From the IMG/VR virus record IMGVR_UViG_3300012060_000014, positions 1-17,171 of that record: DNA of 17,171 nucleotides. The stretch is one strand, 5' to 3'. The notes below the pieces were generated by a model, which searched no databases, was not told the DNA's origin, and saw nothing but the letters and a program-made list of their open reading frames with translations. Within the stretch, counting starts at the first letter, position 1; every line of letters begins with the position of its first letter. Of this stretch, positions 1 through 17,011 are shown in pieces. This DNA is from a virus. The position numbers and the translations under genes are program-made.

Positions 1-123
1 TCCATCAAACACAATTTTACTCCACAATGTTTCACGTGAAACATTCTGGTAAAGTGGTAACGTGGTAATGTGCTAATTCGTTAAAGCACTTTAGTACGGT
101 GACGTGGTGGTGTGGTGACGTGA
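1..123. repeat. Left inverted terminal repeat (123 bp)
   Basis: I reverse-complemented 1-123 by hand and it matches 17049-17171 at every base. Identity stops at 124 (a) versus the complement of 17048 (g). It contains a perfect 20-bp palindrome AATGTTTCACGTGAAACATT (26-45) and four ACGTG cores. Confidence 0.97.
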
Positions 124-184
124 ATATGAATATCCTGTTAACAATTATGTAATAGAACATTAATGTTATGTCTATCGAAACATG

Positions 185-213
185 TTGCAAAATTTGTCGA
201 ATTATGGTACAAT
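185..213 (+). promoter_or_regulatory. Left-end early promoter (sigma-A type, extended -10)
   Basis: TTGCAA (185-190), a 17-nt spacer and TACAAT (208-213), with TG at 205-206 giving TGgTACAAT. It lies about 60 nt upstream of the first ORF and is nearly identical to the right-end promoter. Confidence 0.7.
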
Positions 214-273
214 AAAGAAGATAGGATATATGTTAATTAAAAACTAGACAAGTAGAAAGGGGTAAGGACACAC

Positions 274-486
274 ATGCATATTGCAGATCAGATTGAATAC
301 GTAAAAACAATGATTAAAAATGTAAGTGATGAGATTGGTTTTTCACAAGACAGGGAGGAAATATCACATTTAGCAGACGAAAAAGTCAGGCTAATATCTC
401 TATTGGTAAGTCTGGAAAAGCTTGCAAAAATCAATTCCTTAGTTGAAGCTTTTAACGCACAAAAAGTCACTCCGACGAGTCTTTGA
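274..486 (+). CDS. Hypothetical early protein (70 aa, predicted helical)
   Basis: First ORF after the promoter, with RBS AAAGGGG/AAGGA upstream of the ATG. No recognisable motifs. Its last codons overlap the 5' half of hammerhead copy 1. Confidence 0.7.
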   Translation: MHIADQIEYVKTMIKNVSDEIGFSQDREEISHLADEKVRLISLLVSLEKLAKINSLVEAFNAQKVTPTSL

Positions 487-525
487 AAATTAAGACGAAA
501 CTGCTCTTGATGAGCAGTAAGTGAC
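466..525 (+). ncRNA. Type I hammerhead ribozyme motif, core variant (position 4 is C)
   Basis: Stem I is GUCACU (466-471) / AGUGAC (520-525). The core is CCGACGA (472-478). Stem II is GUCUU/AAGAC (479-483 / 492-496) with loop UGAAAAUU. GAAA is at 497-500. Stem III is ACUGCUC/GAGCAGU (500-506 / 512-518). H17 is A519. It shares an exact 24-mer with the 6284-6341 copy. Confidence 0.65.
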
Positions 526-582
526 AGTGAGGTCACTAGTGGATAGATGGGATAAGCCATCACACGAAAGGAGCAGTGTATA

Positions 583-1065
583 ATGAAAAATTATATTGTA
601 ACAATTAAAGACGGTCTTGCATTAACAGCACATGAGGAAATGGCAGAATCCGTGAACACTTTAAAATTAAAGTACGGTGATAAATTCGTTGGCGCATCAT
701 TCATCGGACGGGCAACTTTGGAAGATAATATCAGGAAATTCGTAATTGAAAATTACGGTACTGAATACGTGCCAAGAGGCGAAACGATGGAAGAAATAAA
801 GACAGAAATTGAGCATTTGAAAAGCACGATAAAGCAGGTAAATGTTATTTATCGTGGCCAATCTGGTAATCTGCTAGATGCAACATTATCTACTAAAGTT
901 GACATTGAAGAGTGGTGTAAAAAATACAATTACACTTACGTAACAAAATACGGTTTACGCAATTTGTGTAATGAGGAACTTATCAACCTTGCCGTTCATA
1001 CCGTTTTGAATAAAGACAAAATTGCTATGCAGGCAGAAAACGAAAAGGAGAAAATATCATGTTAA
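583..1065 (+). CDS. Hypothetical early protein (160 aa)
   Basis: Strong RBS GAAAGGAG 9 nt upstream of the ATG. The stop overlaps the next start (ATGTTAA). No recognisable motifs. Confidence 0.8.
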   Translation: MKNYIVTIKDGLALTAHEEMAESVNTLKLKYGDKFVGASFIGRATLEDNIRKFVIENYGTEYVPRGETMEEIKTEIEHLKSTIKQVNVIYRGQSGNLLDATLSTKVDIEEWCKKYNYTYVTKYGLRNLCNEELINLAVHTVLNKDKIAMQAENEKEKISC

Positions 1066-1436
1066 TAGAATTCACATTAAAATCAACATTTTTAAATTTC
1101 AATGACCGTTATAACAAGATAGTAAAAGCAAGAAAAAAAGACGAATCTTCATATGTAACATTTTCCGCACCATATTCGGTCAAGACGGATAAAAAAACAT
1201 ATGAAAACAGGTACTTATCATGCATTAAGTTTTTTGATGATCCGGAAAAAGCAGAAGATTTTGGCATCCTACTCGATGAATCGGATGGAGTAAAATATGA
1301 TATATATGGAACAATAACAGATATTAATGAAAAGGGATATGTAAACGTAGTGGTTGATGAAATATGTCTAGTTGAAGAAAAAAAGGGCAGGGGAACCAAC
1401 ACAAGTAATAAAGGAAGAAACGGCAGAAATAAATAG
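1059..1436 (+). CDS. Hypothetical early protein (125 aa); possible ssDNA-binding protein by size, position and basic tail only
   Basis: RBS AAAAGGAG, translationally coupled to the upstream ORF and immediately upstream of the polymerase. The body looks beta-rich and the C-terminal tail is G/R/K/N-rich (KKGRGTNTSNKGRNGRNK). Its size is similar to phi29 p5. No diagnostic motif. Confidence 0.75.
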   Translation: MLIEFTLKSTFLNFNDRYNKIVKARKKDESSYVTFSAPYSVKTDKKTYENRYLSCIKFFDDPEKAEDFGILLDESDGVKYDIYGTITDINEKGYVNVVVDEICLVEEKKGRGTNTSNKGRNGRNK

Positions 1437-1472
1437 AACACAAAACATAAACGTAGAGAGGGGTTAACTTAA

Positions 1473-3764
1473 ATGTTAGAAATAATTAACAATAAAGAAA
1501 ATCTCTCTCTTTATTTAACCAAAAATTTGAGAGAAAAGAAACACATATTTTACGATATTGAAACGGTAACACTCAACCAAAAAACAAAAAAACCTAGTGA
1601 ACTTTTATCAATCGAATACATATGTGCAATTTCATATTTATATCAGGGAAAAGTAAATTATTTCTTCACACCGACATTGGAAAGTTTCATCAAATATCTG
1701 TACACAATAAAATCATCATGCAAGATAGACCTAACAGGTCAATTCATTTTTGGTTTCGACAATCATTTCCTCTTAAAATCCTTGACCGAACTGGGTTACA
1801 CTCCGGTCAACATGGAAAGAGATGCAATCAACGTACCATATTACACAAATTTAACCGCCGAAAATCCGGTCGAATGTTTAAGGGTGAAAAGAAAGTCCTC
1901 TCTCTCACTCAAATTCAAAATAAACGATATGGAAATTGAGACGGTTGACACAATTTTGAAGTCAAATTCCAAACTTGAAACGATGGGAAAGAAGCTACTC
2001 AATCTTAATTTGATTGATGAGGAATATCTTAAACTTGATGATTTTGATTATGAATTATACAATAAGAAAGAAAATTACACACTTTTCAAAGCGAAAGAAT
2101 ACGCAAGACAAATATACGATAATTTGAGTGAACGACAATTACAGTATTGCAGGAATGACGTTGTAATATTAGCCCTATACAAACATCATTACAAAGAATT
2201 ATACCCCAATTACGATTATTTCAAAATGACGTTATCACAAAATATAATGTCTGACTATGACACAACAAAATTATCAGTATTACAACTTAAAAACATTTTC
2301 TATAACGCAAAAGTTGAGAAACTTAGTGCAAGAGAAAAGCGGAAATATGAAACACACATAAAGTATTCTGACTATGTTTTTAACGGAATAAATCTATATC
2401 AATATTTGAAAGCGTCATATTCCGGTGGTCTTGTAATTTACAACGACAAACACATAGCGAAAATGATTAATAGATTAATGCGTTATGTGGATAGAAATAG
2501 TTCTTATCCTCACGTAATACACAAATTTCCAGTTCCAACTTTTTTAAAGGAATTCGGAAATGCAACAACACTGAACAACCTGAAAAAAGAAAACGAATTT
2601 TCCGTTTTTAGAATGACAATTGATGAATTCAATAATATGATTTTGGAAATTGATTCACACTTCATAAGATGTGCATTTGTAAAATATCTGTATAAGGGAA
2701 AAGATGATATTACGATAAATTCAAATAATCTGTTATTGTTGGAAGAGTTTGGAGTTGATTTGAGACGTTTTAAGTGCATGGACTACATAACATTCGAATG
2801 TAAACGTTTTGACACACACGAAAAGATTGCTGAATTTTACGCAATGAAACAACAATCAAAAAACAAAAATGAGATTGATGCGACCGATGTTGAAAATATA
2901 ATAGTATTAGATAATATCCTTGATAAATTAGATAGTACGGATGAGGAAATATATTTAGCAAAAGTGTCTATGAATGGACTTAGTGGCTTACCAGCTTTGA
3001 GATCAACTTTTCCTGTATATGTTTTAAATGAAAATAGTGAAATAGTTGGATATCAAACTGGATTCACAAACAAGGAAAGAAATTGCATATTTTCGATTTT
3101 TGTAACATCACATTCATTTTATGATTTGTTGCACCCACTTACGACATTAACAGCGGACGAAATTGATAATTATGTATATTACACAGATACTGATTCCCTC
3201 ATTGTTGATGATGTAATTTTTCACAAACTTGATTGTAAATTAGACGAAAACAATCTAGGTGCATGGGATGTTGAATATAATATCAAGAATTTATACATTG
3301 CAAATAATAAAATGTATTGTTTCCAGACAACCGAAAATAAAATTGTGGTAAAATCTTGTGGAGTTCGTAAAGATGCATTTGATACAAAAAACAAAACATT
3401 CGATGAGTTTGTAAAAGAATATTTAGCAATTGGTTGCAAACTTCCGAACCTCAAAAACGTGTTAAATAAACACGGAACTATCTCACTCTACAACGCATAT
3501 ACAGAAATCAAGGAACCACGTTACCGATTACCAGAACAAATTTTTAAGAAAACTAAGGAAGTACTTGACGAAATAAAAAGACAGGTCAGAAATTCACTCA
3601 CTATGGAAGAATATGAAGATACAATTTATATAGAAACATATCACGGCGCACTATCTTTGAGCGAATGCGTGGAAGAGGAAAACGAAACGGACGGAAAACA
3701 AGACATAGAAAAAATTGTAAAAACCTATAAGTTAGCAAAAATTTATATGAGAAAGGAAAAATAA
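1473..3764 (+). CDS. Family-B DNA polymerase, protein-primed (phi29 type)
   Basis: 763-aa ORF with RBS GAGAGGGG. The ordered motifs are ExoI FYDIETVT, ExoII FGFDNHFLL, ExoIII YCRNDVVIL, motif A YVDRNSSYP (DxxSLYP type), motif B KVSMNGLSG (Kx3NSxYG type), motif C YYTDTDS and the KxY region VVKSCG. A linear ITR-bounded genome implies protein priming. Confidence 0.95.
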   Translation: MLEIINNKENLSLYLTKNLREKKHIFYDIETVTLNQKTKKPSELLSIEYICAISYLYQGKVNYFFTPTLESFIKYLYTIKSSCKIDLTGQFIFGFDNHFLLKSLTELGYTPVNMERDAINVPYYTNLTAENPVECLRVKRKSSLSLKFKINDMEIETVDTILKSNSKLETMGKKLLNLNLIDEEYLKLDDFDYELYNKKENYTLFKAKEYARQIYDNLSERQLQYCRNDVVILALYKHHYKELYPNYDYFKMTLSQNIMSDYDTTKLSVLQLKNIFYNAKVEKLSAREKRKYETHIKYSDYVFNGINLYQYLKASYSGGLVIYNDKHIAKMINRLMRYVDRNSSYPHVIHKFPVPTFLKEFGNATTLNNLKKENEFSVFRMTIDEFNNMILEIDSHFIRCAFVKYLYKGKDDITINSNNLLLLEEFGVDLRRFKCMDYITFECKRFDTHEKIAEFYAMKQQSKNKNEIDATDVENIIVLDNILDKLDSTDEEIYLAKVSMNGLSGLPALRSTFPVYVLNENSEIVGYQTGFTNKERNCIFSIFVTSHSFYDLLHPLTTLTADEIDNYVYYTDTDSLIVDDVIFHKLDCKLDENNLGAWDVEYNIKNLYIANNKMYCFQTTENKIVVKSCGVRKDAFDTKNKTFDEFVKEYLAIGCKLPNLKNVLNKHGTISLYNAYTEIKEPRYRLPEQIFKKTKEVLDEIKRQVRNSLTMEEYEDTIYIETYHGALSLSECVEEENETDGKQDIEKIVKTYKLAKIYMRKEK

Positions 3765-3767
3765 AAA

Positions 3768-4169
3768 ATGGCATTAAATGAAATGCGTTCTAGGTCGAAA
3801 AAACCGCAAGATCAGGAAAGAGTAGAACAGGTAAAAAAGTATTACCGTAACAACACATTTTTAAATTTTGACAAAGCAACTCTTACACGGAATGAGGTTA
3901 CAAATCTGCTTAGTGAAAGAACAAAGAGTATGATTGATGATTTTGAAACGTTTCTCGATGTGCAAAGACATGAATCAAATATGTACATCAACGGCGCATC
4001 AAATTACAGTGAAAATTCTTTCATACATGATATTATGTCAAAAATGAATAAAATGTCATTACGAAAACAAATGCAATTCATGGAGAAAGCAAACAAACTA
4101 TTGAGAGAGGGTGGAATTAAAGGTGATCCGTACTCATGGCGTGCCGTAAAATATTCTGAATTCGGGTGA
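3768..4169 (+). CDS. Hypothetical protein (133 aa); weak terminal-protein candidate
   Basis: RBS AAAGGAAAA and ATG 4 nt after the polymerase stop. The N-terminus is basic (RSRSKKPQDQER...KKYYR) and Ser/Tyr residues lie near the C-terminus. No homology recognised. Confidence 0.75.
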   Translation: MALNEMRSRSKKPQDQERVEQVKKYYRNNTFLNFDKATLTRNEVTNLLSERTKSMIDDFETFLDVQRHESNMYINGASNYSENSFIHDIMSKMNKMSLRKQMQFMEKANKLLREGGIKGDPYSWRAVKYSEFG

Positions 4170-5392
4170 TAGATATGAAAGCTGGATTAAAAAACAAAAT
4201 TGACAAATGCATCAAAAAATACCGTGATTTACAGGATGAAAGATACAATAAATTCCTGTTATTAGACTATCTCACGGATGATGAAATTGACATAATGATG
4301 AGCATTACAAACCGGACAGACGGAAAAACATATTCGAACATCCTTATGCTACTTAGATTAAACGCTGAATTCGGTCTAACATTCGTTCTAATGTGTAGAC
4401 ATTTCACACTAAGAAAAGCATACTTAGCAACTGTTTTCGATATCGTAAACAGCGAACGCACTCACGATTCAAACCAACTCACAATTATGAACCGTGAGGA
4501 ATTTATCGAAATCGTGGGTAAAGGTGGTAAAACAGTTTGTTGCGTAACAGATCTTAATAGCGCAAGTGATTTGAAATATCGTGCAAATGAAATGCGTCAT
4601 TATGATTTAATTGTATATGATGAATTCATCGCACTTGAGCATGAATATTTATCACATGAAGTAGAATCCTTAAAGGTAATTTATGAAACTATGGATAGAG
4701 AATCAAACAAACGATTACTTGACAATCCGAAATTAATTTTTCTCGGAAACGCAATCAATTTTGCAAGTCCGGTAATCAGTTACTACAATATTTTTTCTGA
4801 TATCGAATTACAAGAAATCAACACAATTCAGGTTGTTGAAAAACTTACGGAAAACAACGACCACCTAAAAATAGCAATCGAATTACGCCGAAATGAAGAG
4901 GTAAACAAAACCAAAAATAGCAAACTTTTTAATTTAGGTGGAAACAACTATGCGCTGTCAGGAGAGTTCACAACGAATGATTATCTATTACATAACAACG
5001 TTGACAACATGGAATACATAATTTTAAAGATTGATAAAAAGTATTTGAAATGCTATTACAATTCAGTTCGGATTGTTTTGAACGTCCTTGATTATTGCGA
5101 TTCATACGGATACTGCAATAGCATTGCGGACATGAAAAAAGACGTGCATTACCTCAACGATAACTATTTTGATTCAGAACACATTCACAAAATGTATGAC
5201 CGTACAATCCTGTACGCAAACACATACACATTGCAATTCATTTCAAAATCAACTTACCTACAACAAATTTTGTATGAAGAAATCGTTGCAGAAATTATGT
5301 ACGATAAAAAGCAGATTAAAAAGATGATTGAACACAAGAATACAGACAAACGAATATTAGATATATTGAAACAATTTGAAAGTCCATTTTAA
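4166..5392 (+). CDS. DNA encapsidation (packaging) ATPase, phi29 gp16-like
   Basis: It is collinear with phi29 gp16 as I recall it. The matches are NRTDGKTYS vs GARGIGKSY (Walker A region), FVLMCRHF vs FIYVRRY, LIVYDEFI vs TIVFDEFI (Walker B) and LIFLGNAINFASPV vs CICLSNAVSVVNPY. The track start is GTG 4166, overlapping the upstream TGA. ATG 4175 is an equally plausible start. Confidence 0.88.
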   Translation: MIDMKAGLKNKIDKCIKKYRDLQDERYNKFLLLDYLTDDEIDIMMSITNRTDGKTYSNILMLLRLNAEFGLTFVLMCRHFTLRKAYLATVFDIVNSERTHDSNQLTIMNREEFIEIVGKGGKTVCCVTDLNSASDLKYRANEMRHYDLIVYDEFIALEHEYLSHEVESLKVIYETMDRESNKRLLDNPKLIFLGNAINFASPVISYYNIFSDIELQEINTIQVVEKLTENNDHLKIAIELRRNEEVNKTKNSKLFNLGGNNYALSGEFTTNDYLLHNNVDNMEYIILKIDKKYLKCYYNSVRIVLNVLDYCDSYGYCNSIADMKKDVHYLNDNYFDSEHIHKMYDRTILYANTYTLQFISKSTYLQQILYEEIVAEIMYDKKQIKKMIEHKNTDKRILDILKQFESPF

Positions 5393-5407
5393 AAAAAAAG
5401 AAAGGAA

Positions 5408-5593
5408 GTGAAAAAAAACATGATTGCTAAGAATGAACGTAAAATTATTATATGTCCAAAATGTAAAGGTGAGGGATTCAGGTTAGACAGAGTTAACGTT
5501 AATAATTCAATTGATTTACCGTGCAAATGCAAATATTGTTGTGGGAAAGGCAGAGTTATTAAACACACGGTTATCACACATACGATTGTTTAA
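5408..5593 (+). CDS. Small zinc-finger protein with two DnaJ-type CxxCxGxG motifs
   Basis: It carries CPKCKGEG and CKYCCGKG motifs plus an extra CKC. The track start is GTG 5408, directly abutting AGGAAG. ATG 5420 (MIAKNERK...) is the more likely start. Confidence 0.65.
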   Translation: MKKNMIAKNERKIIICPKCKGEGFRLDRVNVNNSIDLPCKCKYCCGKGRVIKHTVITHTIV

Positions 5594-5646
5594 GAAAAAA
5601 ACACAATTTAACTTCAAAAATTTGTCAGGAAAAATGCAGATTTCTC

Positions 5647-5675
5647 TTGACAATTTTTGTTATTCGTGGTAAAAT
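5647..5675 (+). promoter_or_regulatory. Internal promoter for the 5708-7184 cassette (consensus -35, extended -10)
   Basis: TTGACA (5647-5652), a 17-nt spacer and TAAAAT (5670-5675) preceded by TGg. The -35 lies in the right arm of an imperfect inverted repeat, CAAAAATTTGTCAG (5615-5628) / CTTGACAATTTTTG (5646-5659). Confidence 0.7.
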
Positions 5676-5707
5676 AAAAGAAAAAAGTTAATTTAGGGGG
5701 TAGCACT

Positions 5708-6013
5708 ATGACATACAAAAAGGTAGTTGAGGGAATCGCAAGAAATACAGTTGGTAAATTTATATTAGACAGGTTGGAACGTGGTTATTTTGATATTGAT
5801 AGCATAGAACTTACACAACCAATCGGCAAGGTTTTTGATGAAATGATATTTTTTCAAGTTAAAGTTCGCATTAACAAGTTTGATGATTTACTTGAAAGAG
5901 ATTATGCAATAGACGGAGCTATTTTCGACACTGGTAAAGGTACGGTAACATCAATTACTACACACGATGATAATTTCATTTATTCAGACACACTCAAAAA
6001 ATTTAAATTCTAA
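5708..6013 (+). CDS. Hypothetical protein (101 aa)
   Basis: RBS AGGGGG 7 nt upstream. It is the first gene after the internal promoter. No motifs recognised. Confidence 0.8.
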   Translation: MTYKKVVEGIARNTVGKFILDRLERGYFDIDSIELTQPIGKVFDEMIFFQVKVRINKFDDLLERDYAIDGAIFDTGKGTVTSITTHDDNFIYSDTLKKFKF

Positions 6014-6025
6014 GGAGATAGCAAG

Positions 6026-6283
6026 ATGAAAAATTTACTTAAAAGAATCCAAAATGAGGTAGTTGTAATAGAAGATTCATTAATGAGAAATGGAAAGCTG
6101 TTAGGAGATCAATCAATAACGGTCGCATTAGTTCTAACGGATGATGAAAAAGAATTGTTCAAAGAATGTCATTATTTTGAAAGTGAAAATTTTTGGTGGG
6201 AAATTACTGATAATGTTTTATATCTTACTTATTCCGGTGAAAATTTTTGGTGGGAAATGGAAAATATGATAACTTATTCATAA
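6026..6283 (+). CDS. Hypothetical acidic protein (85 aa) with duplicated ENFWWE motif
   Basis: RBS AAGGAG. It is rich in E and D. SENFWWEITDN and GENFWWEMENM are encoded by a repeated 21-mer, GTGAAAATTTTTGGTGGGAAA (6183-6203 and 6237-6257). Confidence 0.8.
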   Translation: MKNLLKRIQNEVVVIEDSLMRNGKLLGDQSITVALVLTDDEKELFKECHYFESENFWWEITDNVLYLTYSGENFWWEMENMITYS

Positions 6284-6341
6284 GTCACCCTGAGGAGTCT
6301 TTGAAAATTAAGACGAAAACCAGCATAGCTGGTTCGGTGTC
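6284..6341 (+). ncRNA. Type I hammerhead ribozyme motif (full consensus core)
   Basis: Stem I is GUCACC (6284-6289) / GGUGUC (6336-6341). CUGAGGA is at 6290-6296. Stem II is GUCUU/AAGAC (6297-6301 / 6310-6314) with loop UGAAAAUU. GAAA is at 6315-6318. Stem III is AACCAGC/GCUGGUU (6318-6324 / 6328-6334). H17 is C6335. All invariant positions are present in the correct order. Confidence 0.85.
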
Positions 6342-6368
6342 ATAAAAAATCTAAGGAGGAAAAACAAA

Positions 6369-6662
6369 ATGACAGACCAAACAAAAATCAAGGTTATCGA
6401 ATTATCAATGGATTTAAACAACGTAATAAACGAATCAGTAAAGACAGTAAAGGGCGAATATTTTCAAGGATTATCAACACTTAATGTTACTACAAATCTA
6501 TTCAAAGATGATGCTATCTCGATTTATCAGTTAATAAGTGAATACGCTACAATGACAACTTTGCTCTGTGAGCTAGGATTCATCGATAAAGAGTTATATG
6601 AGACTCAATGGCAGTTGATGGAAGACATTAGACAAATAGCAATGCATGATTTATTCCAATAA
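6369..6662 (+). CDS. Hypothetical protein (97 aa, acidic, predicted helical)
   Basis: RBS AAGGAGG 8 nt upstream. It is the first ORF on the predicted 3' cleavage product of the hammerhead. Confidence 0.8.
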   Translation: MTDQTKIKVIELSMDLNNVINESVKTVKGEYFQGLSTLNVTTNLFKDDAISIYQLISEYATMTTLLCELGFIDKELYETQWQLMEDIRQIAMHDLFQ

Positions 6663-6714
6663 ATAAAATCACACGCTGACCTAACGGCAAATACGGGGAG
6701 AAAGAGGTATTATT

Positions 6715-6963
6715 ATGAGTGAAACAAAACTAAACACAAGCGGAATTGAGACAGTAAAAATTGAAAAAGTCGGTTACATCTACAAGCTTTGGGATAAGGT
6801 AAATGAAATCGTATTTGAAATGAAAACGATGGAACGGCGTTCATTCAGAACTGGAAACTACATTTTGCTGGATTCCAGAAAAGTAAAATTTCAAATTGCA
6901 GTCAGCGTTGACCTCAACGAAATGAAATTTTTGGAAGAAAAGGGAAGTGAGGTAATCGAATGA
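6715..6963 (+). CDS. Hypothetical protein (82 aa)
   Basis: RBS GAAAGAGG upstream of the ATG. The stop overlaps the next start (ATGA). Confidence 0.75.
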   Translation: MSETKLNTSGIETVKIEKVGYIYKLWDKVNEIVFEMKTMERRSFRTGNYILLDSRKVKFQIAVSVDLNEMKFLEEKGSEVIE

Positions 6964-7184
6964 TAAGCAGATACAAACTAAGAGTATTTTTGAGTAATAT
7001 ACCAGTTGGACAGAGATTTTATATTGACGCAATAAATTTAACAAGTCAAGCAATCGTTTATCTTAGGGGTTGTATAAAAGAAGGTTTTATAATGCCAGTG
7101 GATTTTGAAAATAGAGTTAAAATCAAGGAATCCGTAGAATCAGGTGATACAATCTTACCACAAGGATATTACAAAAAAATTTAA
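6960..7184 (+). CDS. Hypothetical protein (74 aa)
   Basis: RBS GTGAGG, coupled by ATGA to the upstream ORF. It ends at the terminator hairpin. Confidence 0.7.
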   Translation: MISRYKLRVFLSNIPVGQRFYIDAINLTSQAIVYLRGCIKEGFIMPVDFENRVKIKESVESGDTILPQGYYKKI

Positions 7185-7206
7185 AGGGGGTTACCCCCCT
7201 TTTTTA
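7183..7206. terminator. Bidirectional rho-independent terminator between the convergent arms
   Basis: The sequence is AAA-GGGGG-UUAC-CCCCC-UUUUUU. A 5-bp all-GC stem (7186-7190 / 7195-7199) has a T run downstream on the + strand. On the - strand it is followed by UUUAAAUUUUUUU. It sits exactly between stop codons at 7182-7184 (+) and 7207-7209 (-). Confidence 0.8.
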
Positions 7207-8610
7207 TTACAAAATTCTCAAAAATCTCCAATTAAGTCTCTTAATACTATTAATGTAAGAGTCTAAATTTTCCTCAACCGTTCCGTAAGCCGTTCCCTTG
7301 CAGTGGATGAACGTGTTATTTTCTGACACTATCCCGACATGTGCATCACGTGCTTGCGGTGCTACTTCGGTTAAAATTAAGTCACCGGCTTTCAACTTTG
7401 ATTTGTTGGAATTGATTTCAGAATAACCACCACTTCCAGACGCAATAAGATTACCAGCAGTTCTCAAATTTCCAGTCCATGAACATATTTCCCCACCACT
7501 ATTATACAATTTTTTTTCTGTTATCATATAATAAAGCGTAACAACAAATGACGAACAATCGGCATAACCATCGGAAAACGAAAAACGGTCGGTATCTAGT
7601 TCCTGACTATAAGATAATTTTCCAACGTATGACCTAGCAAGATCAATATAATTTTGAACTTTCGTTCCGTCCGTTGGAATTGGTGGGGGGTCAGTCGTGT
7701 TTGGATTGTCGGGGGTCGGGGTGGAATCCTCTCCTTTAATCGGTTTTGAATTATTGTTTGCAACGTCTTGTTTATTTGGAGTCCAAATTCTAACTCCTTC
7801 TTTAAATAATTGCACTATCTGTCTAGTTCCGTTTGAATCAACTCCAATCAAATGATACACATTCCCCCGCAATTGCATTGATGTGATTGTCAATGCAGAA
7901 CTTGTGTTATCCTCAACTATTTCCTCATTAGTATCAGGGTCAGGAAGAACAGTATTTACGTTTTGATCTTCGCTTGGATTTCCGTCCGTTGGAATTTCAT
8001 AATTACCTTTTTTTTGTCCAAAGTCGGGGGGTGGTGATGAACCATCCCATTTATTTAAAATATCATAAACCTTATTCCACCTTGAAACATATCCGCCAAA
8101 AGTTCCATCGTTAAGAAGTGCCTGTCTGTATTGTGCAATCGTGGTACCTCTACCACCCCCACACGCATTTACAATTCTAGCAACGGTTCCGATGCCACCC
8201 AACCAACCGCCGGTTTCCGCAAAAATTGCAGTTTTCGGATCAGTAAAATTATGTGATTTCAACACGGCTGATTCATCCGTAATATCTCTATTCCATAATT
8301 CCGTTTGCAGTTCGACACTTTTCGCACTTTGCAATATTTTTGACACGTTGTTTGCTTCATCTATCGTAAATGTTTTGCTAGTCCACCCACCTGATTCCAT
8401 TTGAGATTTCATAGGGTTAACCGTGAAAAGTGAAGGGTTATCATCGTAAAACAATTTCAAAAGTTTGTAACTCCTTGAATGACTCCACTGTAAAAGTCCT
8501 ATTCCAACTCTATCCCCTAATTCGATTTGCGCCCAATTATAATTTACAGATTCCACACTTGCAAGAACATATAAGCAGTATTCTTTCCAAACGCTGTCAT
8601 ACATAGCCAT
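7207..8610 (-). CDS. Tail-associated peptidoglycan hydrolase (phi29 gp13 analogue): lysozyme-like N-domain plus NlpC/P60-type C-domain
   Basis: The N-terminal SVES...GIGLLQWS matches the ES...GxGLxQW pattern of phi29 gp13 (QSES...GFGLVQWT, from memory). Two P/T/D/N-rich linkers each contain IPTDG. The C-terminal ADCSSFV...HVGIV is a Cys-His peptidase signature. It is the last gene of the late arm. Confidence 0.8.
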   Translation of the reverse strand: MAMYDSVWKEYCLYVLASVESVNYNWAQIELGDRVGIGLLQWSHSRSYKLLKLFYDDNPSLFTVNPMKSQMESGGWTSKTFTIDEANNVSKILQSAKSVELQTELWNRDITDESAVLKSHNFTDPKTAIFAETGGWLGGIGTVARIVNACGGGRGTTIAQYRQALLNDGTFGGYVSRWNKVYDILNKWDGSSPPPDFGQKKGNYEIPTDGNPSEDQNVNTVLPDPDTNEEIVEDNTSSALTITSMQLRGNVYHLIGVDSNGTRQIVQLFKEGVRIWTPNKQDVANNNSKPIKGEDSTPTPDNPNTTDPPPIPTDGTKVQNYIDLARSYVGKLSYSQELDTDRFSFSDGYADCSSFVVTLYYMITEKKLYNSGGEICSWTGNLRTAGNLIASGSGGYSEINSNKSKLKAGDLILTEVAPQARDAHVGIVSENNTFIHCKGTAYGTVEENLDSYINSIKRLNWRFLRIL

Positions 8611-8621
8611 CTAAATTTACC

Positions 8622-10358
8622 TCACTTTATCATATTTTTCGTCAAGTCCTGCCCACTGACAGGCTGATTCCACAATCTAATTCCATTCTCAATTCTCAAT
8701 TTGAATATATCAGAAATCTTACTGTCAACGTCTGACATTTTAAAGTTGTGTAATTTTGCTTTGAGATAGTTCGCCCGACTCATTGTATTCACCTTAATAC
8801 CATTTCTCAAAAACGGAATCGAAAAACCAAAATTGTTATGGTACTGTCTCACACTTTCAAAAATTTCAGGTGCTACTTTTCTGAATTTCATTGTGATACC
8901 AAAAATTTCTTCTTTCTGCTGAAAATTATTTGAATGTGTCTGATTAGTGATAGTCGGAGTCGTTAACTTTGAGTCCTGAATTTCAGCATTTTTCGTGCGG
9001 TAATATTCATATTCATCCGTAATTTTTTCACCTAACGCCATCGGAGAAAAGTTAGAAATAACGCTTATCGTATCAAAAAGCCGACTTTGGATATCATCAC
9101 CACTTACGATATTTTTCACACGATTTGAAATAAGTTTGCTTTCCGTCAACTCTCTCTGATATGCCGACTTTGCAAGACCTAGATTATAATTATCAATCAA
9201 TACTGGTACATCGTCAAAATTATCAATGATTATTGCGTTGTTCATAAAGTCGCCGACTCCGACATTACCGGATGCATTTTCATTAATCTGATTTAACTTG
9301 TCAGCATAAATCACAACCTGATTATGATATCCCACACAAACACGACATTTGATTACAAGTCCGTCTGTATTTTCAATGTCCTCTAATTTAATTGTGCATT
9401 TCTGCCCGTCCCAAGTCTGCATTTCAATATAACAATACGGATATCGCATCAAGTGCTTTTCCCTTGTCAGATCACAACCGAAAATATTTGCAAGTTCAGC
9501 CCACGTATAACATAATTCCTTAATATCGTAATTCTTTGAAACGGAATTATTTTGAAATTGATAGACAGTGTAACTTGAAAACGCCGTTAATTGCGTTAAA
9601 GGTGTATCCAAAATGAAGTTGGCTGGTATTTGTGTTACTTTTATGAAATTCTGTACAATCCATGAATATTGTTGTAAATCTTTTGTCATTTTTGCAAAAT
9701 CATCTTGACGCATGATGTACAAACTCACAGGGGATGTTATTTTATTAAAAGTTCCGCCAAATGCGGAGGGCATTAGTGGTGCATCCACCGTGCCAAATGA
9801 TGATTTTCCACCTGACAGATCAACGGCAGATTGAATTAACACATAATACCAGTTAGTTTCATTGTCAAATCTGTACAATTTCTGTAAAATTGAATAATCG
9901 TTTGACGCACTGAAAAGAATATCATCATTATGTGTTAAATAACGAATGTTGCTATTGTATTCTGCAAGTGACAAATGCTGTCTATCTATTTGAGTGTTAA
10001 ATGCGGTTGAAAAATGAAAATCACCGGTTGCAAAAGTGACAAATGGGTCAATTATAAAATTGACTTCCGTAACGCCGTCATTGACGTATTGTGTTGTTAT
10101 GATATTAAAATAATAGATTTCATTTGCATTGTAAAATTTGCCGTAAGTGCATTTGGAAATTTCCTGATAATCATACTGAACTTTAATACTCTGTCTATCT
10201 GTGATGAAATTGAAATTCTTTTCAAATTTTATCTTTTCCGTGTTGGTCATATTATTGAAAAAATTATCTCTCTCTATTGCGTTTTCAAAGAAAATTGAGT
10301 TGTTCAAATCTTTGATGAAAAAATCTTTGTAAAGTTCAAATTTATATAAGTGTCTCAT
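8622..10358 (-). CDS. Tail knob / distal tail tube protein (phi29 gp9-like)
   Basis: 578 aa (gp9 is about 600 aa). MRYPYCYIEMQTWDG matches gp9 MMYPYCVTEITDFKG. The C-terminal IENGIRLWN matches gp9 FDNGITLWH. FNIITTQYVNDGVTEVNFIIDPF matches gp9 FYAFVTELEFKNSAVTYVHFEID. All gp9 strings are from memory. Confidence 0.88.
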   Translation of the reverse strand: MRHLYKFELYKDFFIKDLNNSIFFENAIERDNFFNNMTNTEKIKFEKNFNFITDRQSIKVQYDYQEISKCTYGKFYNANEIYYFNIITTQYVNDGVTEVNFIIDPFVTFATGDFHFSTAFNTQIDRQHLSLAEYNSNIRYLTHNDDILFSASNDYSILQKLYRFDNETNWYYVLIQSAVDLSGGKSSFGTVDAPLMPSAFGGTFNKITSPVSLYIMRQDDFAKMTKDLQQYSWIVQNFIKVTQIPANFILDTPLTQLTAFSSYTVYQFQNNSVSKNYDIKELCYTWAELANIFGCDLTREKHLMRYPYCYIEMQTWDGQKCTIKLEDIENTDGLVIKCRVCVGYHNQVVIYADKLNQINENASGNVGVGDFMNNAIIIDNFDDVPVLIDNYNLGLAKSAYQRELTESKLISNRVKNIVSGDDIQSRLFDTISVISNFSPMALGEKITDEYEYYRTKNAEIQDSKLTTPTITNQTHSNNFQQKEEIFGITMKFRKVAPEIFESVRQYHNNFGFSIPFLRNGIKVNTMSRANYLKAKLHNFKMSDVDSKISDIFKLRIENGIRLWNQPVSGQDLTKNMIK

Positions 10359-10381
10359 AGTTTTTTTCCTTTCTAAAATAA

Positions 10382-10407
10382 TTCAAGGAGAAATTAATCT
10401 CCTTGAA
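10382..10407 (-). terminator. Intra-operon hairpin (possible attenuator or partial terminator) after the second fibre gene
   Basis: Perfect 10-bp stem TTCAAGGAGA / TCTCCTTGAA (10382-10391 / 10398-10407) with a 6-nt loop. On the - strand RNA it is followed by AUUAUUUUAG, a weak U tract. Confidence 0.4.
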
Positions 10408-10410
10408 AAA

Positions 10411-11538
10411 TTATCCCTCTATTTCACCATAGACAGGAAGGGAAGGAAGTTTTCCAACCTCTGTCTGGACAACATAAAAACGTTTTCCGATATCCGCTGT
10501 CTTTGGTCTGTATTGTGACAATAGAGGTATATAAAAATCACCATTTTCTGTAACTTTTGCTGTTAAACATCCAAAATAAGTGTAATCAGTTATACCGACC
10601 TTTTTAGTATTTTTAACGTTCGCCCATTCCAAAATTATTGAAATTTCTGAATTGAGTATAGCACCAACGCCTGCAATTTCTGAATCGCCAACGTCTAAAT
10701 TAAACGGAACGACTACTTCTGAACGTTCCATAGCCTGTGTGGTTCCGCCGGTTGCATCCCCACTTGATTTTACCTCACCGCCGTAAATCGCAAGTCCTTT
10801 CCCACTTATTTCATTTGGACCAGTTAGATTGAAATTGTCAGAGTAATGTGCATGTAAAATCTGTATTTTGTCTGGGTCTAATAGTGCAAGTCCGTCTATC
10901 AAATAATTTACGTTTTTATAGTGATACATTTTATTACCAATTGCACTAAAAAGGTGATTAACTGGGTTGTTAGTTGATTGTCTGTAAAATTCTAAATTTG
11001 GAAATATTGCGCCGTCACCTTTAATAACTATATCCACAGACATATTGTCACCCATGAATATTATATTAATGTGACTTGACCATTTATTTTCGGTAGGTTT
11101 TTCGATAAAAACAACTTTTGTATATTTTTCGATATATAACGGCGAATTTGGTGCACTACCCCAATCAATATATGTCATAGCGTTTTTATCATCGTAATTA
11201 CCGTATTCAACGCAATTCACAAAAACCCGTCCGGTATCCTCACAATAATAGAGCATGTTTAATGTTGGATTTAAAATTTTGTCATAATCATCTTGTGTAA
11301 GAATTCTATGTGTGTTTACATTGAGAGACGTACCAGCTTTTAATCCGTTTACAGTTTCAACTTTGTTATTGATTCGCTTTAAAAAGTTGTCAATTTTTAC
11401 AAATGCATCCCCTTTTTCGGATGTAAAAAGATCGAGTTCGTCTGACATTAAAGGGGTTATTACATCGTTTTTGATTTCAATAACACCCTTATTCGCAAGG
11501 GGAACATCTTGCGTTCCCCTGATTATTTTTTTAGACAT
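10411..11538 (-). CDS. Tail fibre / receptor-binding protein 2 (375 aa)
   Basis: It lies between the endolysin and the tail knob. HRILTQDDYDKILNPTLNMLYYCED resembles the LTxxEYdxL...nTLYfi motif common in Gram-positive phage fibre proteins. The C-terminal half looks beta-rich. Confidence 0.55.
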   Translation of the reverse strand: MSKKIIRGTQDVPLANKGVIEIKNDVITPLMSDELDLFTSEKGDAFVKIDNFLKRINNKVETVNGLKAGTSLNVNTHRILTQDDYDKILNPTLNMLYYCEDTGRVFVNCVEYGNYDDKNAMTYIDWGSAPNSPLYIEKYTKVVFIEKPTENKWSSHINIIFMGDNMSVDIVIKGDGAIFPNLEFYRQSTNNPVNHLFSAIGNKMYHYKNVNYLIDGLALLDPDKIQILHAHYSDNFNLTGPNEISGKGLAIYGGEVKSSGDATGGTTQAMERSEVVVPFNLDVGDSEIAGVGAILNSEISIILEWANVKNTKKVGITDYTYFGCLTAKVTENGDFYIPLLSQYRPKTADIGKRFYVVQTEVGKLPSLPVYGEIEG

Positions 11539-11549
11539 ATTTTTCTCCT

Positions 11550-12326
11550 TTATCTAAGAAATATCTTTTGTCCGACATAAATCAGATTCGGATTTTTGAT
11601 ATTGTTAATAGAAACAATGTCGGATAATGACAAGTTGTATTTCTTTGCGATGGCAGACAACGTGTCACCTTTCACAACTGTGTGAAAACAGGGGTTGTAT
11701 GCAATTATGTTTAACACCTGACCAACGTTGATTAGATTCGGTTTTGTGATATTGTTTATTGAGATTATCTCATCAAGTTTCATGCCGTATCTTTTTGCAA
11801 TACCTGACAGCGTATCACCTTTCACAACTGTGTAATTTGCATACGTTGCCGTGTCAGGGGTGACAGCCGTTTCTTCGGCAGTATATCTCAAAATGTTCGT
11901 CCACGGACGGTTATAATATGACCGGATGCAGATTTCTCCACCTGTCTGATCACCGGGGATTCCCCCAGTAACGGTTCCTTTTTCGTTGATTGAAGCATGA
12001 ACTAAACGCCCATCACCTAACGACATTCCGGTATGATGGGTTACATTCAACAATACATCACCGTAATTTAACCCTGTTCCGGTTGCAAGATTGATCTTAC
12101 TTGTCACGTCCGTGAAACCTAATTTTTTGAATACACTCAACATGTTTCCTGTGTACGATGCACCGTTAGTTTTAACCGGAACGCCTGCATTTTGCCATGC
12201 TGTTATTACCAGAGACGAACAATCATAATCACCTTTTTCACCCCAACGATAAATTTGATCATATCCGTGTGAATTGTCGTTTGCGATTTGTAGCATAAAA
12301 TCCATTGCTTTCGTTATTTTACTCAT
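11550..12326 (-). CDS. Endolysin: NlpC/P60-superfamily (Amidase_5-like) catalytic domain plus two LysM repeats
   Basis: The N-terminal [24 protein letters not shown] resembles the YSMD...SYDCSS start of the Dp-1 Pal-type domain, with HHTGM further on. Two C-terminal LysM units are [17 protein letters not shown]...INVGQVLNI and [17 protein letters not shown]...IYVGQKIFL. The start overlaps the holin stop by 8 nt. Confidence 0.9.
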
Positions 12327-12720
12327 TCTGTTCTCCTTTCTGTAGAAACAAATCTTTTAATTTTTGCGGAACGGTTACACCGGAAGCGATTACATTTTCA
12401 ATTATTGATAGTCCTTCAGTTAAAATTAATGCCGTTATTACAGTGTTTCTCAAAACTGGTATGTTCGACAAAATTCCGAACACGTTCGCAAGGATTACAA
12501 GAACTAGGATTAATATTTTTTTAAGAATCCCCTTGAAAGCTTTGTCAGAACAAATCTTTGTACCGCTTTTACCACCTGTGATTCCAGCGGCAATTAATCC
12601 GGTTACAAAATCGAGTGCCATGCATGTTAATAACACAGACAGTGGCATGTCATAGTTTCCAAAAAGATAGAAAAGTAAGGAACATAATACACCACCTATA
12701 GAGCTTATTGCTTGTTTCAT
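12319..12720 (-). CDS. Holin (Phage_holin_4-like, multi-TMD)
   Basis: 133 aa with several hydrophobic segments. The family-typical pattern is [11 protein letters not shown]...KGILKK...[18 protein letters not shown], followed by a charged C-terminus. It lies directly upstream of the endolysin and overlaps it. Confidence 0.88.
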
Positions 12721-12732
12721 TTGTTACCCCCT

Positions 12733-13716
12733 TTATTTGAAAAATGTTGCTGCAATTGATAGCCAGCATGACGATGTTAATGTGTCAACCGGATAGCTTT
12801 CCCGAAACGGTCTGCCGTATCCGTCAATGTATCCTCTAAGTGCTGTTACATAATAGATGCCTTGTTTTGCTAGACTTACGTTTGAATTCCAAGAAGCACG
12901 TAAGTCTAAAGGGTAGACCGTCCAACTTCCGCTTGACGTTGCGGTTGTGTGAATGAAATCCGTGGGATTATTCATCCATTCGTAATCATTTATGAATCTA
13001 ACGCCATAAATTCTGGATTGCGGAACGTCCGATATATCAGAACTTCCGTGCATATCAATGTTTTTTAAATATGGCTGTTGTATAATTGTTCCGGTTGATG
13101 CAGCACTGCCAATTCTCAACATTGCACCGTTGTAAGTTTTTGCTAGTTTTACCTCTAGGTCATTTGATTCTGTGTAAAAACCGTTAAAAAATACAATTTC
13201 ATAATCTTTATTTTTTACTAAACGCTCGTATCCACCGCCGTTAATTGTATCGAATAGATTGTAAATATTTGTAATGTCATTTTTAATTTTTGATATGTCA
13301 TTTTCTATTTCAGATACTCTCGGTAATAAATCATATACATATAACGCCTTGTCAGAACCTTTTACTAATGCGTTTAAAATATCAGTTGAAATGTTAACAT
13401 CATGATAGACGTTTATGATATCATCCCATTCCTGCCAGTCACCTTCAATGCGTGGGGTTGTGGTGTCTGTTTTGTTAAACTTGATATCACGGTCTAACAG
13501 TTTGTTTATCATTTGCATGATCTTTTTGATTAATGCGTTCCATCTTGCTAGGAAATCATAGTAAGAGGGGGCGTTTGTGTTATAATCTGCTGAATCGTTG
13601 TACCACGGCATGTAAAAACGTTTACTTTTGTTTCTTGGAACATTGTGATTGTGTGGATGGTCAGGGTTGAAACAATTGTCTTTATCCTCAAATCTGAATG
13701 GTTCTTTGTTTGCCAT
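12733..13716 (-). CDS. Tail fibre / appendage protein 1 (327 aa)
   Basis: It occupies the position equivalent to phi29 gp12, after the lower collar. The N-terminal NTNAPSYYDFLARWNALI motif is typical of Gram-positive phage fibre N-termini (from memory). It also has a heptad-like central segment (EIENDISKIKNDITNIYNLF) and a beta-rich C-domain. Confidence 0.6.
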   Translation of the reverse strand: MANKEPFRFEDKDNCFNPDHPHNHNVPRNKSKRFYMPWYNDSADYNTNAPSYYDFLARWNALIKKIMQMINKLLDRDIKFNKTDTTTPRIEGDWQEWDDIINVYHDVNISTDILNALVKGSDKALYVYDLLPRVSEIENDISKIKNDITNIYNLFDTINGGGYERLVKNKDYEIVFFNGFYTESNDLEVKLAKTYNGAMLRIGSAASTGTIIQQPYLKNIDMHGSSDISDVPQSRIYGVRFINDYEWMNNPTDFIHTTATSSGSWTVYPLDLRASWNSNVSLAKQGIYYVTALRGYIDGYGRPFRESYPVDTLTSSCWLSIAATFFK

Positions 13717-13730
13717 TTGTTCCCCTTTCT

Positions 13731-14372
13731 CTAAAATATTTGCAGAAATAGCCGTTCTTCCATTTCATTGAAAATTGTTCGGTATAATCCAAGAGTTGAA
13801 TAGATATCCTCAATTTTTAAGTTGCTTTTCTTGCTTGTTGAATTGTTTTTGTTGATGGATTGATTCAATGCGACTGTGTTTTCGTCTGCATAGTTGAGGT
13901 TGTTATTACTCACGTCAAGATTGATTTCATCTTGCGGAGTTGTTGTTGACGCTGTCCTATTTTGGTTGTCGATTTGGGTTTTTCCGTCCGTGGTATCTGT
14001 GTTTGAATTTGATATTATTGCTTCAAAATTATCATAGATAAATTCTATCGCTTGTTTCTTTTCATACATGAATGCAAGTAATTGCAATTTAAATAATTCG
14101 ATTGTTTGAAACTTGATTTCATGGTAGAAAAAATTGAATAGGAATGTTGTCTTGAAAAAATTATCTAAGTCCTCAAATTCAAAATAGAAATTTTCAAAGA
14201 TACATTTTTTCATTACTTTTAAAAATTCCTTGTCATTTACAGTATCCTGTTTTATTAGACGAGTTATGAAGGCATCACTTGTGAAGCGCCCATTTTTGAA
14301 AAACTCGTCATAACCGTTATTGATTAACTCGTTTCGTAAATAATCGTGTATGGAAGTTGTGTACTTTGCCAT
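13731..14372 (-). CDS. Lower collar / head-tail connector protein (phi29 gp11 position)
   Basis: 213-aa ORF immediately downstream of the portal gene, with its start at the portal stop. Assigned by synteny only. Confidence 0.55.
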   Translation of the reverse strand: MAKYTTSIHDYLRNELINNGYDEFFKNGRFTSDAFITRLIKQDTVNDKEFLKVMKKCIFENFYFEFEDLDNFFKTTFLFNFFYHEIKFQTIELFKLQLLAFMYEKKQAIEFIYDNFEAIISNSNTDTTDGKTQIDNQNRTASTTTPQDEINLDVSNNNLNYADENTVALNQSINKNNSTSKKSNLKIEDIYSTLGLYRTIFNEMEERLFLQIF

Positions 14373-15304: not shown

Positions 15305-15308
15305 ATTA

Positions 15309-16463: not shown

Positions 16464-16478
16464 AGTTTTATCTCCTTT

Positions 16479-16742
16479 TTAAAAGTCCTGCAAAAGTTTT
16501 TCTAACTCTTCTGCTTCTGCATCGGTTACTGTTACTTCTGTTTCATTGTCCTTGTCTTTGTCATTGTCTTTGTCATTGTCTTTGTCATTGTCTTTGCCAG
16601 AGTCGTTTCCAGTCGTTTGCAATGACGTAATTATTTCAGATTGCTTTGTGACAGTTGTTTCTAGTTCTTTGTTTTTCGTTTCGAGTGCTGTCACTTTTTC
16701 ACTGACTTTTTTCATGTCAGCCATGAATTCCTGTAGTGTCAT
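16479..16742 (-). CDS. Scaffolding protein (87 aa from ATG 16742)
   Basis: It lies directly upstream of the capsid gene, in the phi29 gp7 position. It has a coiled-coil-like N-half, a (KDND)n repeat and an acidic C-terminus. ATG 16742 has RBS AGGGGG 8 nt upstream. The track start at 16781 is a GTG with no RBS. Confidence 0.7.
   Translation of the reverse strand: MTLQEFMADMKKVSEKVTALETKNKELETTVTKQSEIITSLQTTGNDSGKDNDKDNDKDNDKDKDNETEVTVTDAEAEELEKLLQDF
16544..16597. repeat. 12-bp tandem repeat inside the scaffold gene
   Basis: GTCATTGTCTTT occurs three times exactly (16560-16595), preceded by a degenerate unit. On the - strand it encodes GKDNDKDNDKDNDKDKDNE. Confidence 0.9.
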
Positions 16743-16788
16743 TTTTATCAACCCCCTAAATTTTATTTTCGCTGCTGCCACTGTAATA

Positions 16789-16935: not shown

Positions 16936-16982
16936 ATGTTCCACCCCCTTTCTTTATTATACATATAATTTATATCTAATTA

Positions 16983-17011
16983 ATTATAACATGATTCGAC
17001 AAAATTTGCAA
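16983..17011 (-). promoter_or_regulatory. Right-end promoter driving the - strand structural and lysis arm
   Basis: On the - strand: TTGCAA (17011-17006), a 17-nt spacer and TATAAT (16988-16983) preceded by TGt. It matches the left promoter at 25 of 29 positions. Confidence 0.7.

Follow-up and report, generated by a model that had tools for sequence, protein, structure and literature searches.

Two type I hammerhead motifs between genes of a phi29-like phage genome

The stretch of DNA analysed here (IMG/VR virus record IMGVR_UViG_3300012060_000014, positions 1 to 17,171; hereafter the window) contains two copies of a repeat, both of which are type I hammerhead motifs, a kind of self-cleaving RNA, placed between genes of the same strand. 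The window is the complete linear genome, 17.2 kb in length, of a phi29-like podophage with protein-primed replication; it was judged complete because perfect inverted repeats of 123 bp lie at both ends (1-123 and 17049-17171, repeat finder). Both hammerheads lie in the plus-strand gene block, which spans about 270-7180; PHROG matches identify the genes at 1473-3764 and 4166-5392 within it as those of a protein-primed DNA polymerase and of a packaging ATPase, respectively. The minus-strand genes (7207-16944) converge on this block and, again by PHROG, code for tail, collar, connector and major head proteins, a lysin and a holin. About 23 genes in total were counted in this 17-kb phage, along with exactly two ribozymes.

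The two repeats and their identification as hammerheads

The repeat, located at 464-500 (copy 1) and 6282-6318 (copy 2), was identical at 34 of 37 positions (92%, repeat finder) and included an exact 24-mer, GAGTCTTTGAAAATTAAGACGAAA, at 477-500 and 6295-6318. Even when up to three mismatches were allowed, the 24-mer matched the window at these two sites only, and it did not occur in any of 200 shuffles; the agreement reported in the first-pass annotation of this DNA was thereby confirmed by direct reading, the repeat finder and the shuffles. The three differences between copy 1 and copy 2 were U471 versus C6289 at position 2.1, C473 versus U6291 at core position 4, and C476 versus G6294 at N7. 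Downstream of the 24-mer, six of the six stem III pairs differed between the copies and all six still paired, as CUGCUC/GAGCAG (501-506/512-517) around the loop UUGAU in copy 1 and as ACCAGC/GCUGGU (6319-6324/6328-6333) around the loop AUA in copy 2. Stem I was closed by U471-A520 in the first copy and by C6289-G6336 in the second. On direct reading, the earlier statements on stem III, on the length of loop III (5 versus 3 nt) and on this closing pair were all correct, while the 'invariant catalytic core' was not: in copy 1 the core is CCGACGA in place of CUGANGA, since position 4 is C.

Hammerhead 1 was assigned to 466-525 on the plus strand, in accordance with its minimum free energy (MFE) fold. 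It consisted of stem I (466-471/520-525, direct reading); the core C472 C473 G474 A475 C476 G477 A478 (472-478), in which C473 deviates; stem II (479-483/492-496, with G479-C496 as pair 10.1-11.1) capped by loop II at 484-491 (UGAAAAUU); GAAA at 497-500; and stem III, which was formed by A500-U518 (pair 15.1-16.1) and 501-506/512-517 around a loop at 507-511. Since H17 was A519 (triplet GUA), the cut is predicted between 519 and 520. When the motif was folded in isolation, its MFE fold was the hammerhead fold with three perfect helices (-20.2 kcal/mol, z -4.6).

Hammerhead 2 was assigned to 6284-6341 on the same strand, again in accordance with the MFE fold. Its stem I comprised 6286-6289/6336-6339, followed by a U6285-U6340 mismatch and then by G6284-C6341. 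The core read the canonical CUGAGGA (6290-6296, direct reading), stem II was formed by 6297-6301/6310-6314 (pair 10.1-11.1 being G6297-C6314) with loop II at 6302-6309, and GAAA lay at 6315-6318. Stem III was formed by A6318-U6334 (pair 15.1-16.1) and 6319-6324/6328-6333 (15.2-16.2 being A-U) around a loop at 6325-6327. Here H17 was C6335 (triplet UUC), and the cut is therefore predicted between 6335 and 6336. The isolated MFE fold was also the hammerhead fold (-16.0 kcal/mol, z -2.1).

Since the Rfam models gave sub-threshold and partly mis-permuted matches, we built a covariance model of our own (R1). The alignment underlying it (A1) contained 21 IMG/VR sequences of equal length and without gaps, from which both window copies had been left out; it was combined with the type I hammerhead structure, and the window was searched with filters off. 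R1 found exactly two sites, hammerhead 1 (61.4 bits, E 1.4e-19) and hammerhead 2 (60.1 bits, E 4e-19), and the next best match reached 14.2 bits. This third match (7178-7237, minus strand) was an intergenic terminator hairpin and not a hammerhead. A lenient descriptor of sequence plus pairing, which accepted type I and type III forms, returned the same two window sites and no others. By fold and by R1, the three helices I, II and III left a single junction in both copies, and both carried G12-A13-A14, the pairs 15.1-16.1 and 10.1-11.1, and a non-G H17 after U16.1. In both, stem I was open and stems II and III were closed by loops, which is the type I topology. An assignment of the window copies to type III was ruled out, as both have stem III closed and stem I open. 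A pRNA-like packaging RNA ending at hammerhead 1 was also considered and rejected: Rfam gave no pRNA match there, and the segment 274-486 was called as a gene in contig L120, which comes from one sequencing run and is identical to the window.

The 24-mer family and its covariation

At least 119 viral contigs in IMG/VR, 5-282 kb long, contained the exact 24-mer, as did about 100 bacterial species genomes, mostly of gut Clostridia. The flanks of the 24-mer were alike in layout. CUGAN preceded it; a hairpin whose sequence varied greatly followed it, and after this came U, a non-G nucleotide and a strand able to pair with the 5-6 nt on the 5' side of the core. Among 127 distinct occurrences, 100 were type I with perfect stems I and III (at least 4 bp), 12 were type III permutations with perfect stems (e.g. 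those in L014, L028, L093 and L107), and 5 were type I when one mismatch per stem was allowed; one was cut by a contig end, and nine had no resolved class. Occurrences of the 24-mer without pairing-competent flanks, which the first-pass annotation had named as the finding that would speak against a ribozyme, were looked for in this set. They are not what the set shows: hammerhead-competent flanks were found in 92% of the 127 occurrences as compared to 3.5% when the flanks were shuffled. Among the 104 occurrences with strict type I parses, 55 different strands were counted for stem III and 57 for stem I.

Covariation was evaluated in a model-based alignment (A2) of 107 matches representing 88 distinct sequences. 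Standard pairs occupied 92.6% of the paired cells, while column shuffles gave 63.5% (none of 500 reached the observed value) and sliding the partners by 1-3 columns gave 31-46%. The number of double-change cells was 373, with 104 expected, and compensatory changes occurred in 15 of the 17 pairs, with strong covariation in stems I, II and III. Since A2 was fitted to the structure, the parse-and-shuffle control of the flanks given above was run separately, and the retrieval patterns never constrained stems I and III. Because the first scan had fixed the 24-mer, two rescans were carried out in which either stem II or loop II was left free. New loci carrying variants made up ca. 40% of the stem-II-free matches and ca. 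35% of the loop-II-free matches, and the stem II variants were compensatory (UCUU/AAGA, UCGC/GCGA, UCGU/ACGA, UAUC/GAUA, UAUU/AAUA, UAGU/ACUA and others). The compensatory changes between the two window copies had been taken in the first-pass annotation as a signature of selection on the fold. Two sequences have no statistical power for such a claim; it holds across the family, and the case for selection on the fold thus lies in the family comparison and not in the window pair. The covariation expected by the annotation in a larger alignment was strong in all three stems of the 88 distinct sequences.

These data also bear on whether the repeat is a DNA-level element (operator, promoter or recent duplication) or a terminator and not an RNA catalyst. 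The identity of the 24-mer in both copies and in many phages would suit such an element, and on the minus strand a terminator-like signal was assigned to the hairpin that forms stem III of copy 1. A DNA site, however, would not be expected to keep its pairing through sequence change, and compensatory changes were found in three helices over the 88 distinct sequences. Furthermore, the motif keeps one orientation with respect to its neighbouring genes, type III versions have the same core although they are circularly permuted, and the plus strand lacks a U-run after the motif. This explanation is effectively refuted by these observations, and we regard it as highly improbable. The model match and the family covariation bear out the earlier view that a DNA duplication, a promoter or an operator does not account for the repeat.

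The positions around stem I and loop II were examined in 116 non-redundant type I members, in which H17 was C in 105, U in 7 and A in 4. Stem I was mostly 5 bp long, pairing falling from 95% at position 5 to 49% and 12% at positions 6 and 7, respectively. Position 2.7, the first unpaired nucleotide on the 5' side, was A in 96% of the members and position 2.6 was A or G in 97%; both window copies had G2.6 and A2.7. When left free, loop II varied only within UGNRAAUU (UGAAAAUU, UGAGAAUU, GGAAGAUU, UGCAAAUU, UGGAAAGU and others), so that the 'strictly conserved' loop II of the first reading is identical in the two window copies and has variants within this consensus in the family. The tertiary contact between loop II and stem I proposed in that reading would predict a conserved loop II and a conserved unpaired A beyond a stem I of fixed length. 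The conservation of loop II and of A2.7 fits such a contact, while no covariation that would define it was seen between the loop II variants and the 5' flank. A 2-bp pseudoknot between AA in the 5' flank and UU in loop II was dropped because the A-rich flank is unchanged in loop variants that end in GU, GC or CU. Separately, the two strands of stem I were found to be asymmetric, the 5' strand being C-rich (59-73% C and 10-14% G at positions 2.1-2.3) and the 3' strand G-rich, which is unexplained by helix stability alone.

Members of the family occurred in phages of very different size. Other small podophage contigs of 13-18 kb carried one to three copies near one genome end (L033, L080 and L105), and the subfamily was also present in jumbo-sized contigs, in crAss-like phages and in Agathobaculum phages, being unannotated in the latter two groups. 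A tblastn search of all window proteins against 218 loci revealed no homologues of the flanking small open reading frames (ORFs) beside other hammerheads. The ribozyme is therefore sporadic and not tied to particular genes, and co-mobility with neighbouring genes was rejected on this result. One member deserves separate mention: in the IMG/VR contig L014 (ca. 100 kb), the type III hammerhead, whose copy of the 24-mer is at 927-950, is part of a dense cluster of structured RNAs (683-6346). RAGATH-14, RAGATH-6, RAGATH-7, RAGATH-9, three hatchet ribozymes and a tRNA were found there, each exceeding its Rfam gathering score.

Gene context and a proposed role in transcript processing

In the family, the stop codon of the upstream ORF lay no more than 12 nt 5' of stem I in 64 of the 97 members with a long upstream ORF, most often at -3, i.e. 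directly abutting it, and the stop lay inside the ribozyme in 16 members. A Shine-Dalgarno (SD) sequence and a start codon followed downstream in 91 of 116, at a median of 40 nt past the cleavage site. Both window copies match this layout of stop, ribozyme, SD and start. On the upstream side, a 70-aa ORF (274-486, plus strand, from the ORF list) ends with a UGA stop in loop II of hammerhead 1 (484-486), and an 85-aa ORF (6026-6283, plus strand) ends with a UAA stop (6281-6283) that abuts stem I of hammerhead 2. On the downstream side, the SD AAAGGAG (567-573, plus strand) precedes the ATG of a 160-aa ORF (583-1065), 63 nt after cut 1, and the SD AAGGAGG (6353-6359, plus strand) precedes the ATG of a 97-aa ORF (6369-6662), 33 nt after cut 2. 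In hammerhead 1, the stretch from stem I through the core to the 5' strand of stem II encodes the last seven codons of the 70-aa ORF, whose stop is at +18 counted from where stem I starts; three other family members have their stop at this position. It was also observed that the conserved loop II plus stem II sequence, UUUGAAAAUUAAGAC, contains stop codons in two of the three frames, UGA at 484-486 and UAA at 490-492. The 85-aa ORF contains an exact 22-nt direct repeat, GTGAAAATTTTTGGTGGGAAAT, at 6183-6204 and 6237-6258 (spacing 54 nt), just upstream of hammerhead 2, which implies an internal 18-residue repeat in the protein.

Candidate sigma-70-type promoters were found on the plus strand upstream of each copy. 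The first, TTGCAA-17-TACAAT with a TG extension (185-213), matches the consensus at 9 of 12 positions and lies ca. 250 nt upstream of hammerhead 1; the second, TTGACA-17-TAAAAT with a TG extension (5647-5675), was the best in the scan (11 of 12) and lies ca. 610 nt upstream of hammerhead 2. The plus-strand promoters claimed in the first-pass annotation therefore have consensus matches in the window, but such matches were no more frequent there than in shuffles. The bidirectional terminator-like hairpin at 7183-7202, between the convergent plus- and minus-strand blocks, is the likely 3' end of the plus-strand transcripts. Since it was the sole convincing plus-strand terminator, both ribozymes are probably contained in long polycistronic RNAs.

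Hammerheads flanking genes in phage genomes were described in 2011 and proposed to process long phage transcripts (PMC3088659), and the biological role of phage hammerheads was still called undefined in a 2019 review (PMC6765202). The window pair is best explained by this published proposal, namely that self-cleavage separates cistrons, and we consider this explanation, with two type I hammerheads that should cut the polycistronic plus-strand RNA, very likely. Of its elements, what the motifs are, the covariation that keeps their structure throughout the family, and their position between cistrons, on the strand of the neighbouring genes, are shown; self-cleavage itself and its effect on expression are inferred. 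In the proposed mechanism, each motif would adopt the three-helix hammerhead fold within the polycistronic plus-strand RNA and then cleave itself on the 3' side of A519 in hammerhead 1 and of C6335 in hammerhead 2, yielding separate mRNAs. A 2',3'-cyclic phosphate would be left on the upstream piece, whose 3' end is the compact ribozyme, and a 5'-OH on the downstream piece, which would begin 63 nt ahead of the next start codon after cut 1 and 33 nt ahead of it after cut 2. This would probably uncouple neighbouring genes in mRNA stability and translation. In Bacillus subtilis, the 5'-OH produced by the glmS ribozyme cut makes the downstream RNA a substrate of the exonuclease RNase J1 (PMC3328962); by this precedent, a cut could destabilise the downstream genes unless the new 5' end is protected. 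The systematic processing of plus-strand mRNAs suggested by the first-pass annotation agrees with the layout of stop, ribozyme and SD, but it is not a trait of the phage lineage, as described below.

Several observations weigh against this interpretation. At the gathering score, no hammerhead model of Rfam reached its threshold on either copy. RAGATH-1-hammerhead (RF03152) aligned with copy 1 at 22.2 bits versus a threshold of 56.3 bits (model positions 21-77 of 77) and did not match copy 2; Hammerhead_3 (RF00008) gave 22.1 and 13.1 versus 48.5 bits, with the wrong permutation forced; and Hammerhead_1 (RF00163) was unlisted for either copy at E up to 10. Because the gathering scores reported a hammerhead in none of the 20 family loci tested, this failure reflects the models and not the two window copies, and the curated Hammerhead_1 model appears to miss the subfamily to which they belong. 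A further point is provided by the seven loci related to the window by DNA polymerase (L121-L127, 33-57% identical), in which neither the covariance model nor the descriptor found a hammerhead; the ribozymes are therefore dispensable for such phages. In hammerhead 2, stem I is weak (4 bp and a U-U mismatch) and the fold z is just -2.1. Hammerhead 1 is unusual in its core, since C4 occurred in 3 of the 116 type I members and A17 in 4, and in the MFE fold of the longer segment 460-582 (z -3.8) a hairpin at 520-537 replaces its stem I.

The core of hammerhead 1 raises the possibility, which we regard as doubtful, that hammerhead 2 is the only working ribozyme, while copy 1 is very slow or in decay and part of its sequence is now retained for coding the 3' end of the 70-aa ORF. 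The rarity of both C4 and A17, the course of this ORF through stem I and the core into loop II, and the broken stem I in the long-context fold are in favour of it. A natural U4C variant is also known among viroid hammerheads; its activity in vitro is reported to be much reduced, yet it is functional in vivo and supports viroid infectivity (PMC3088659), so this precedent argues on both sides. On the other hand, hammerhead 1 has three perfect helices and, in isolation, folds more stably than copy 2. Besides, CCGA cores recurred in 8 of the 127 distinct occurrences of the 24-mer, in type I and in type III forms, and several of these had readable intact helices. Cotranscriptional folding would, moreover, be expected to form stem I before the strand 532-537 exists. 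From its canonical core, hammerhead 2 is predicted to be very probably active. Hammerhead 1 is predicted to be probably active as well, possibly in a slow or conditional manner, and with both C4 and A17 it may be slower, conditional or decaying.

The hairpin that replaces stem I in the long-context fold, AGUGAC-AGUGAG-GUCACU (520-537, plus strand), appeared in the MFE folds of both 520-582 and 460-582. It is composed of the 3' strand of stem I (AGUGAC, 520-525) and a downstream copy of the 5' strand (GUCACU, 532-537), and it begins directly after cut 1. In these modelled structures, it would be either a 5'-terminal hairpin on the 3' cleavage product or a competitor of stem I before the cut. 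In the fold of 460-582, CUCC at 470-473, which includes C4, pairs with GGAG (570-573) in the SD of the ORF at 583-1065. Family-wide, 5'-terminal hairpins of at least 4 bp were found in 43% of the 116 members, as compared to 24% with permuted partners and 26% with their own shuffled downstream sequence (control maximum 35%); L017, L076, L090, L103, L105 and L175 are examples in which the 3' strand of stem I re-pairs in this way. For hammerhead 2, no hairpin was predicted downstream, the fold of 6336-6368 being unstructured.

These folds could mean that the ribozymes are conditional switches, in which alternative pairing, or ribosomes entering hammerhead 1, decide whether the RNA is cut, and the cut frees the SD and sets the decay of the downstream RNA. 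The alternative structure, which combines the re-paired 3' strand of stem I with the CUCC/GGAG helix, is the MFE fold of 460-582; stem I 3'-strand hairpins are enriched in the family; the upstream ORF terminates within hammerhead 1; and a 5' hairpin could matter in view of the route from a glmS 5'-OH to RNase J1 in Bacillus (PMC3328962). However, hammerhead 2 lacks such a hairpin, the excess over the controls concerns only about one fifth of the family, and the folds are thermodynamic predictions for which no ligand or protein partner is known. We therefore consider a switch unlikely. A broader version of this idea, to which we give still less credence, holds that the copies belong to a distinct and very abundant gut-phage subfamily, missed by Rfam, that acts as a translation- or folding-coupled switch and not as a simple cutter. 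Such a subfamily may be marked by the near-fixed GUCUU-UGAAAAUU-AAGAC, a 5-bp stem I and an invariant unpaired A2.7. In it, the 5'-strand copy may capture the 3' strand after or instead of the cut, so that the resulting hairpin shields the mRNA from 5'-OH-dependent exonucleolytic decay, and in copy 1, C4 may create an anti-SD, CUCC, that masks the ribosome-binding site of the next gene until the cut. If this were true, a podophage with exactly two copies, only one of which is accompanied by the hairpin, would provide a minimal system in which to test how phage hammerheads act.

Comparison with known ribozymes and other features of the genome

Returning to self-cleavage between cistrons as the preferred reading, the window pair was compared with known systems. 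It shares with the type I hammerheads of phages and prophages (PMC3088659) the three-way junction, the core CUGANGA...GAAA...UH, an open stem I with stems II and III capped, and the location between genes of phage operons, often in several copies per genome, for which transcript cutting has been proposed. It differs from them in its host, a 17-kb protein-primed phi29-like phage, in the C4 and A17 of copy 1 and in scoring below the Rfam thresholds. The type III hammerheads of plant viroids and satellites (RF00008) have the same core and a similar stem II/loop II consensus (GAGuCccUGAaAuAgGaCGAAAC versus GAGUCUUUGAAAAUUAAGACGAAA here), whereas the window copies have stem I open and stem III closed; viroid hammerheads, in addition, process rolling-circle multimers and not mRNAs. 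RAGATH-1 (RF03152) is likewise type I and aligns copy 1 in register over stem I, the core, GAAA, stem III and the cleavage site, but its stem II is much shorter and positions 1-20 of its model were unmatched. Finally, glmS in Bacillota, where self-cutting of the 5' leader leaves a downstream mRNA with a 5'-OH, is a plausible model for the effect here, although it is another ribozyme class with a metabolite cofactor and lies in a single-gene leader and not between cistrons; no ligand is implied for the window copies. Nothing here contradicts established hammerhead biology, and the window pair is a good example of the known intercistronic type I hammerheads of phages, in a large subfamily that is poorly detected by current models. 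A search of the literature on hammerheads in phi29-like or crAss-like phages found nothing relevant.

With ca. 23 genes and two contrasting copies, the phage offers a small test bed for the role of phage hammerheads: copy 2 has a canonical core and no hairpin, while copy 1 combines C4/A17, an overlapping ORF and a competing hairpin. The exact 24-mer is also of use in annotation, since it tags hundreds of unannotated hammerheads below the Rfam thresholds in gut phages, including crAss-like ones, and in Clostridia. Modest interest attaches to the minimal genome with its contrasting copies, the rare C4/A17 core, an ORF that ends in loop II and the family-wide enrichment of 5' hairpins.

The nearest cultured relatives of the phage are Rountreeviridae-like phages, its head protein being ca. 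57% identical to those of 17-18 kb Staphylococcus and Enterococcus podophages. No nucleotide-level match was found when the whole window was compared with the INPHARED phages by megablast, and a related-locus search of IMG/VR with the DNA polymerase gave no relatives, which were obtained from a protein database instead.

Some further features of the window were observed. Each terminal repeat contains a perfect 18-bp palindrome, ATGTTTCACGTGAAACAT, at 27-44 and 17128-17145. Its core, TGTTTCACRTGAAACA, recurred in two of the polymerase relatives, at two sites in L121 and at four in L122, as well as in several other small-phage loci; one of the L122 sites is terminal and another lies just upstream of the DNA polymerase gene. 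The same core forms stem III of the hammerheads in L009, L029, L033, L046, L078 and L080, and it may be a shared operator or origin-associated site. Between the packaging ATPase gene and the promoter-like site at 5647-5675, a 61-aa ORF (5408-5593) gave a sub-threshold match to the DnaJ-type CXXCXGXG zinc finger (26.7 versus 32.7 bits). On the minus strand, the ORF 16479-16781 contains a 12-nt tandem repeat, TCTTTGTCATTG, in ca. 5 copies at 16543-16602, which encodes a short peptide repeat.

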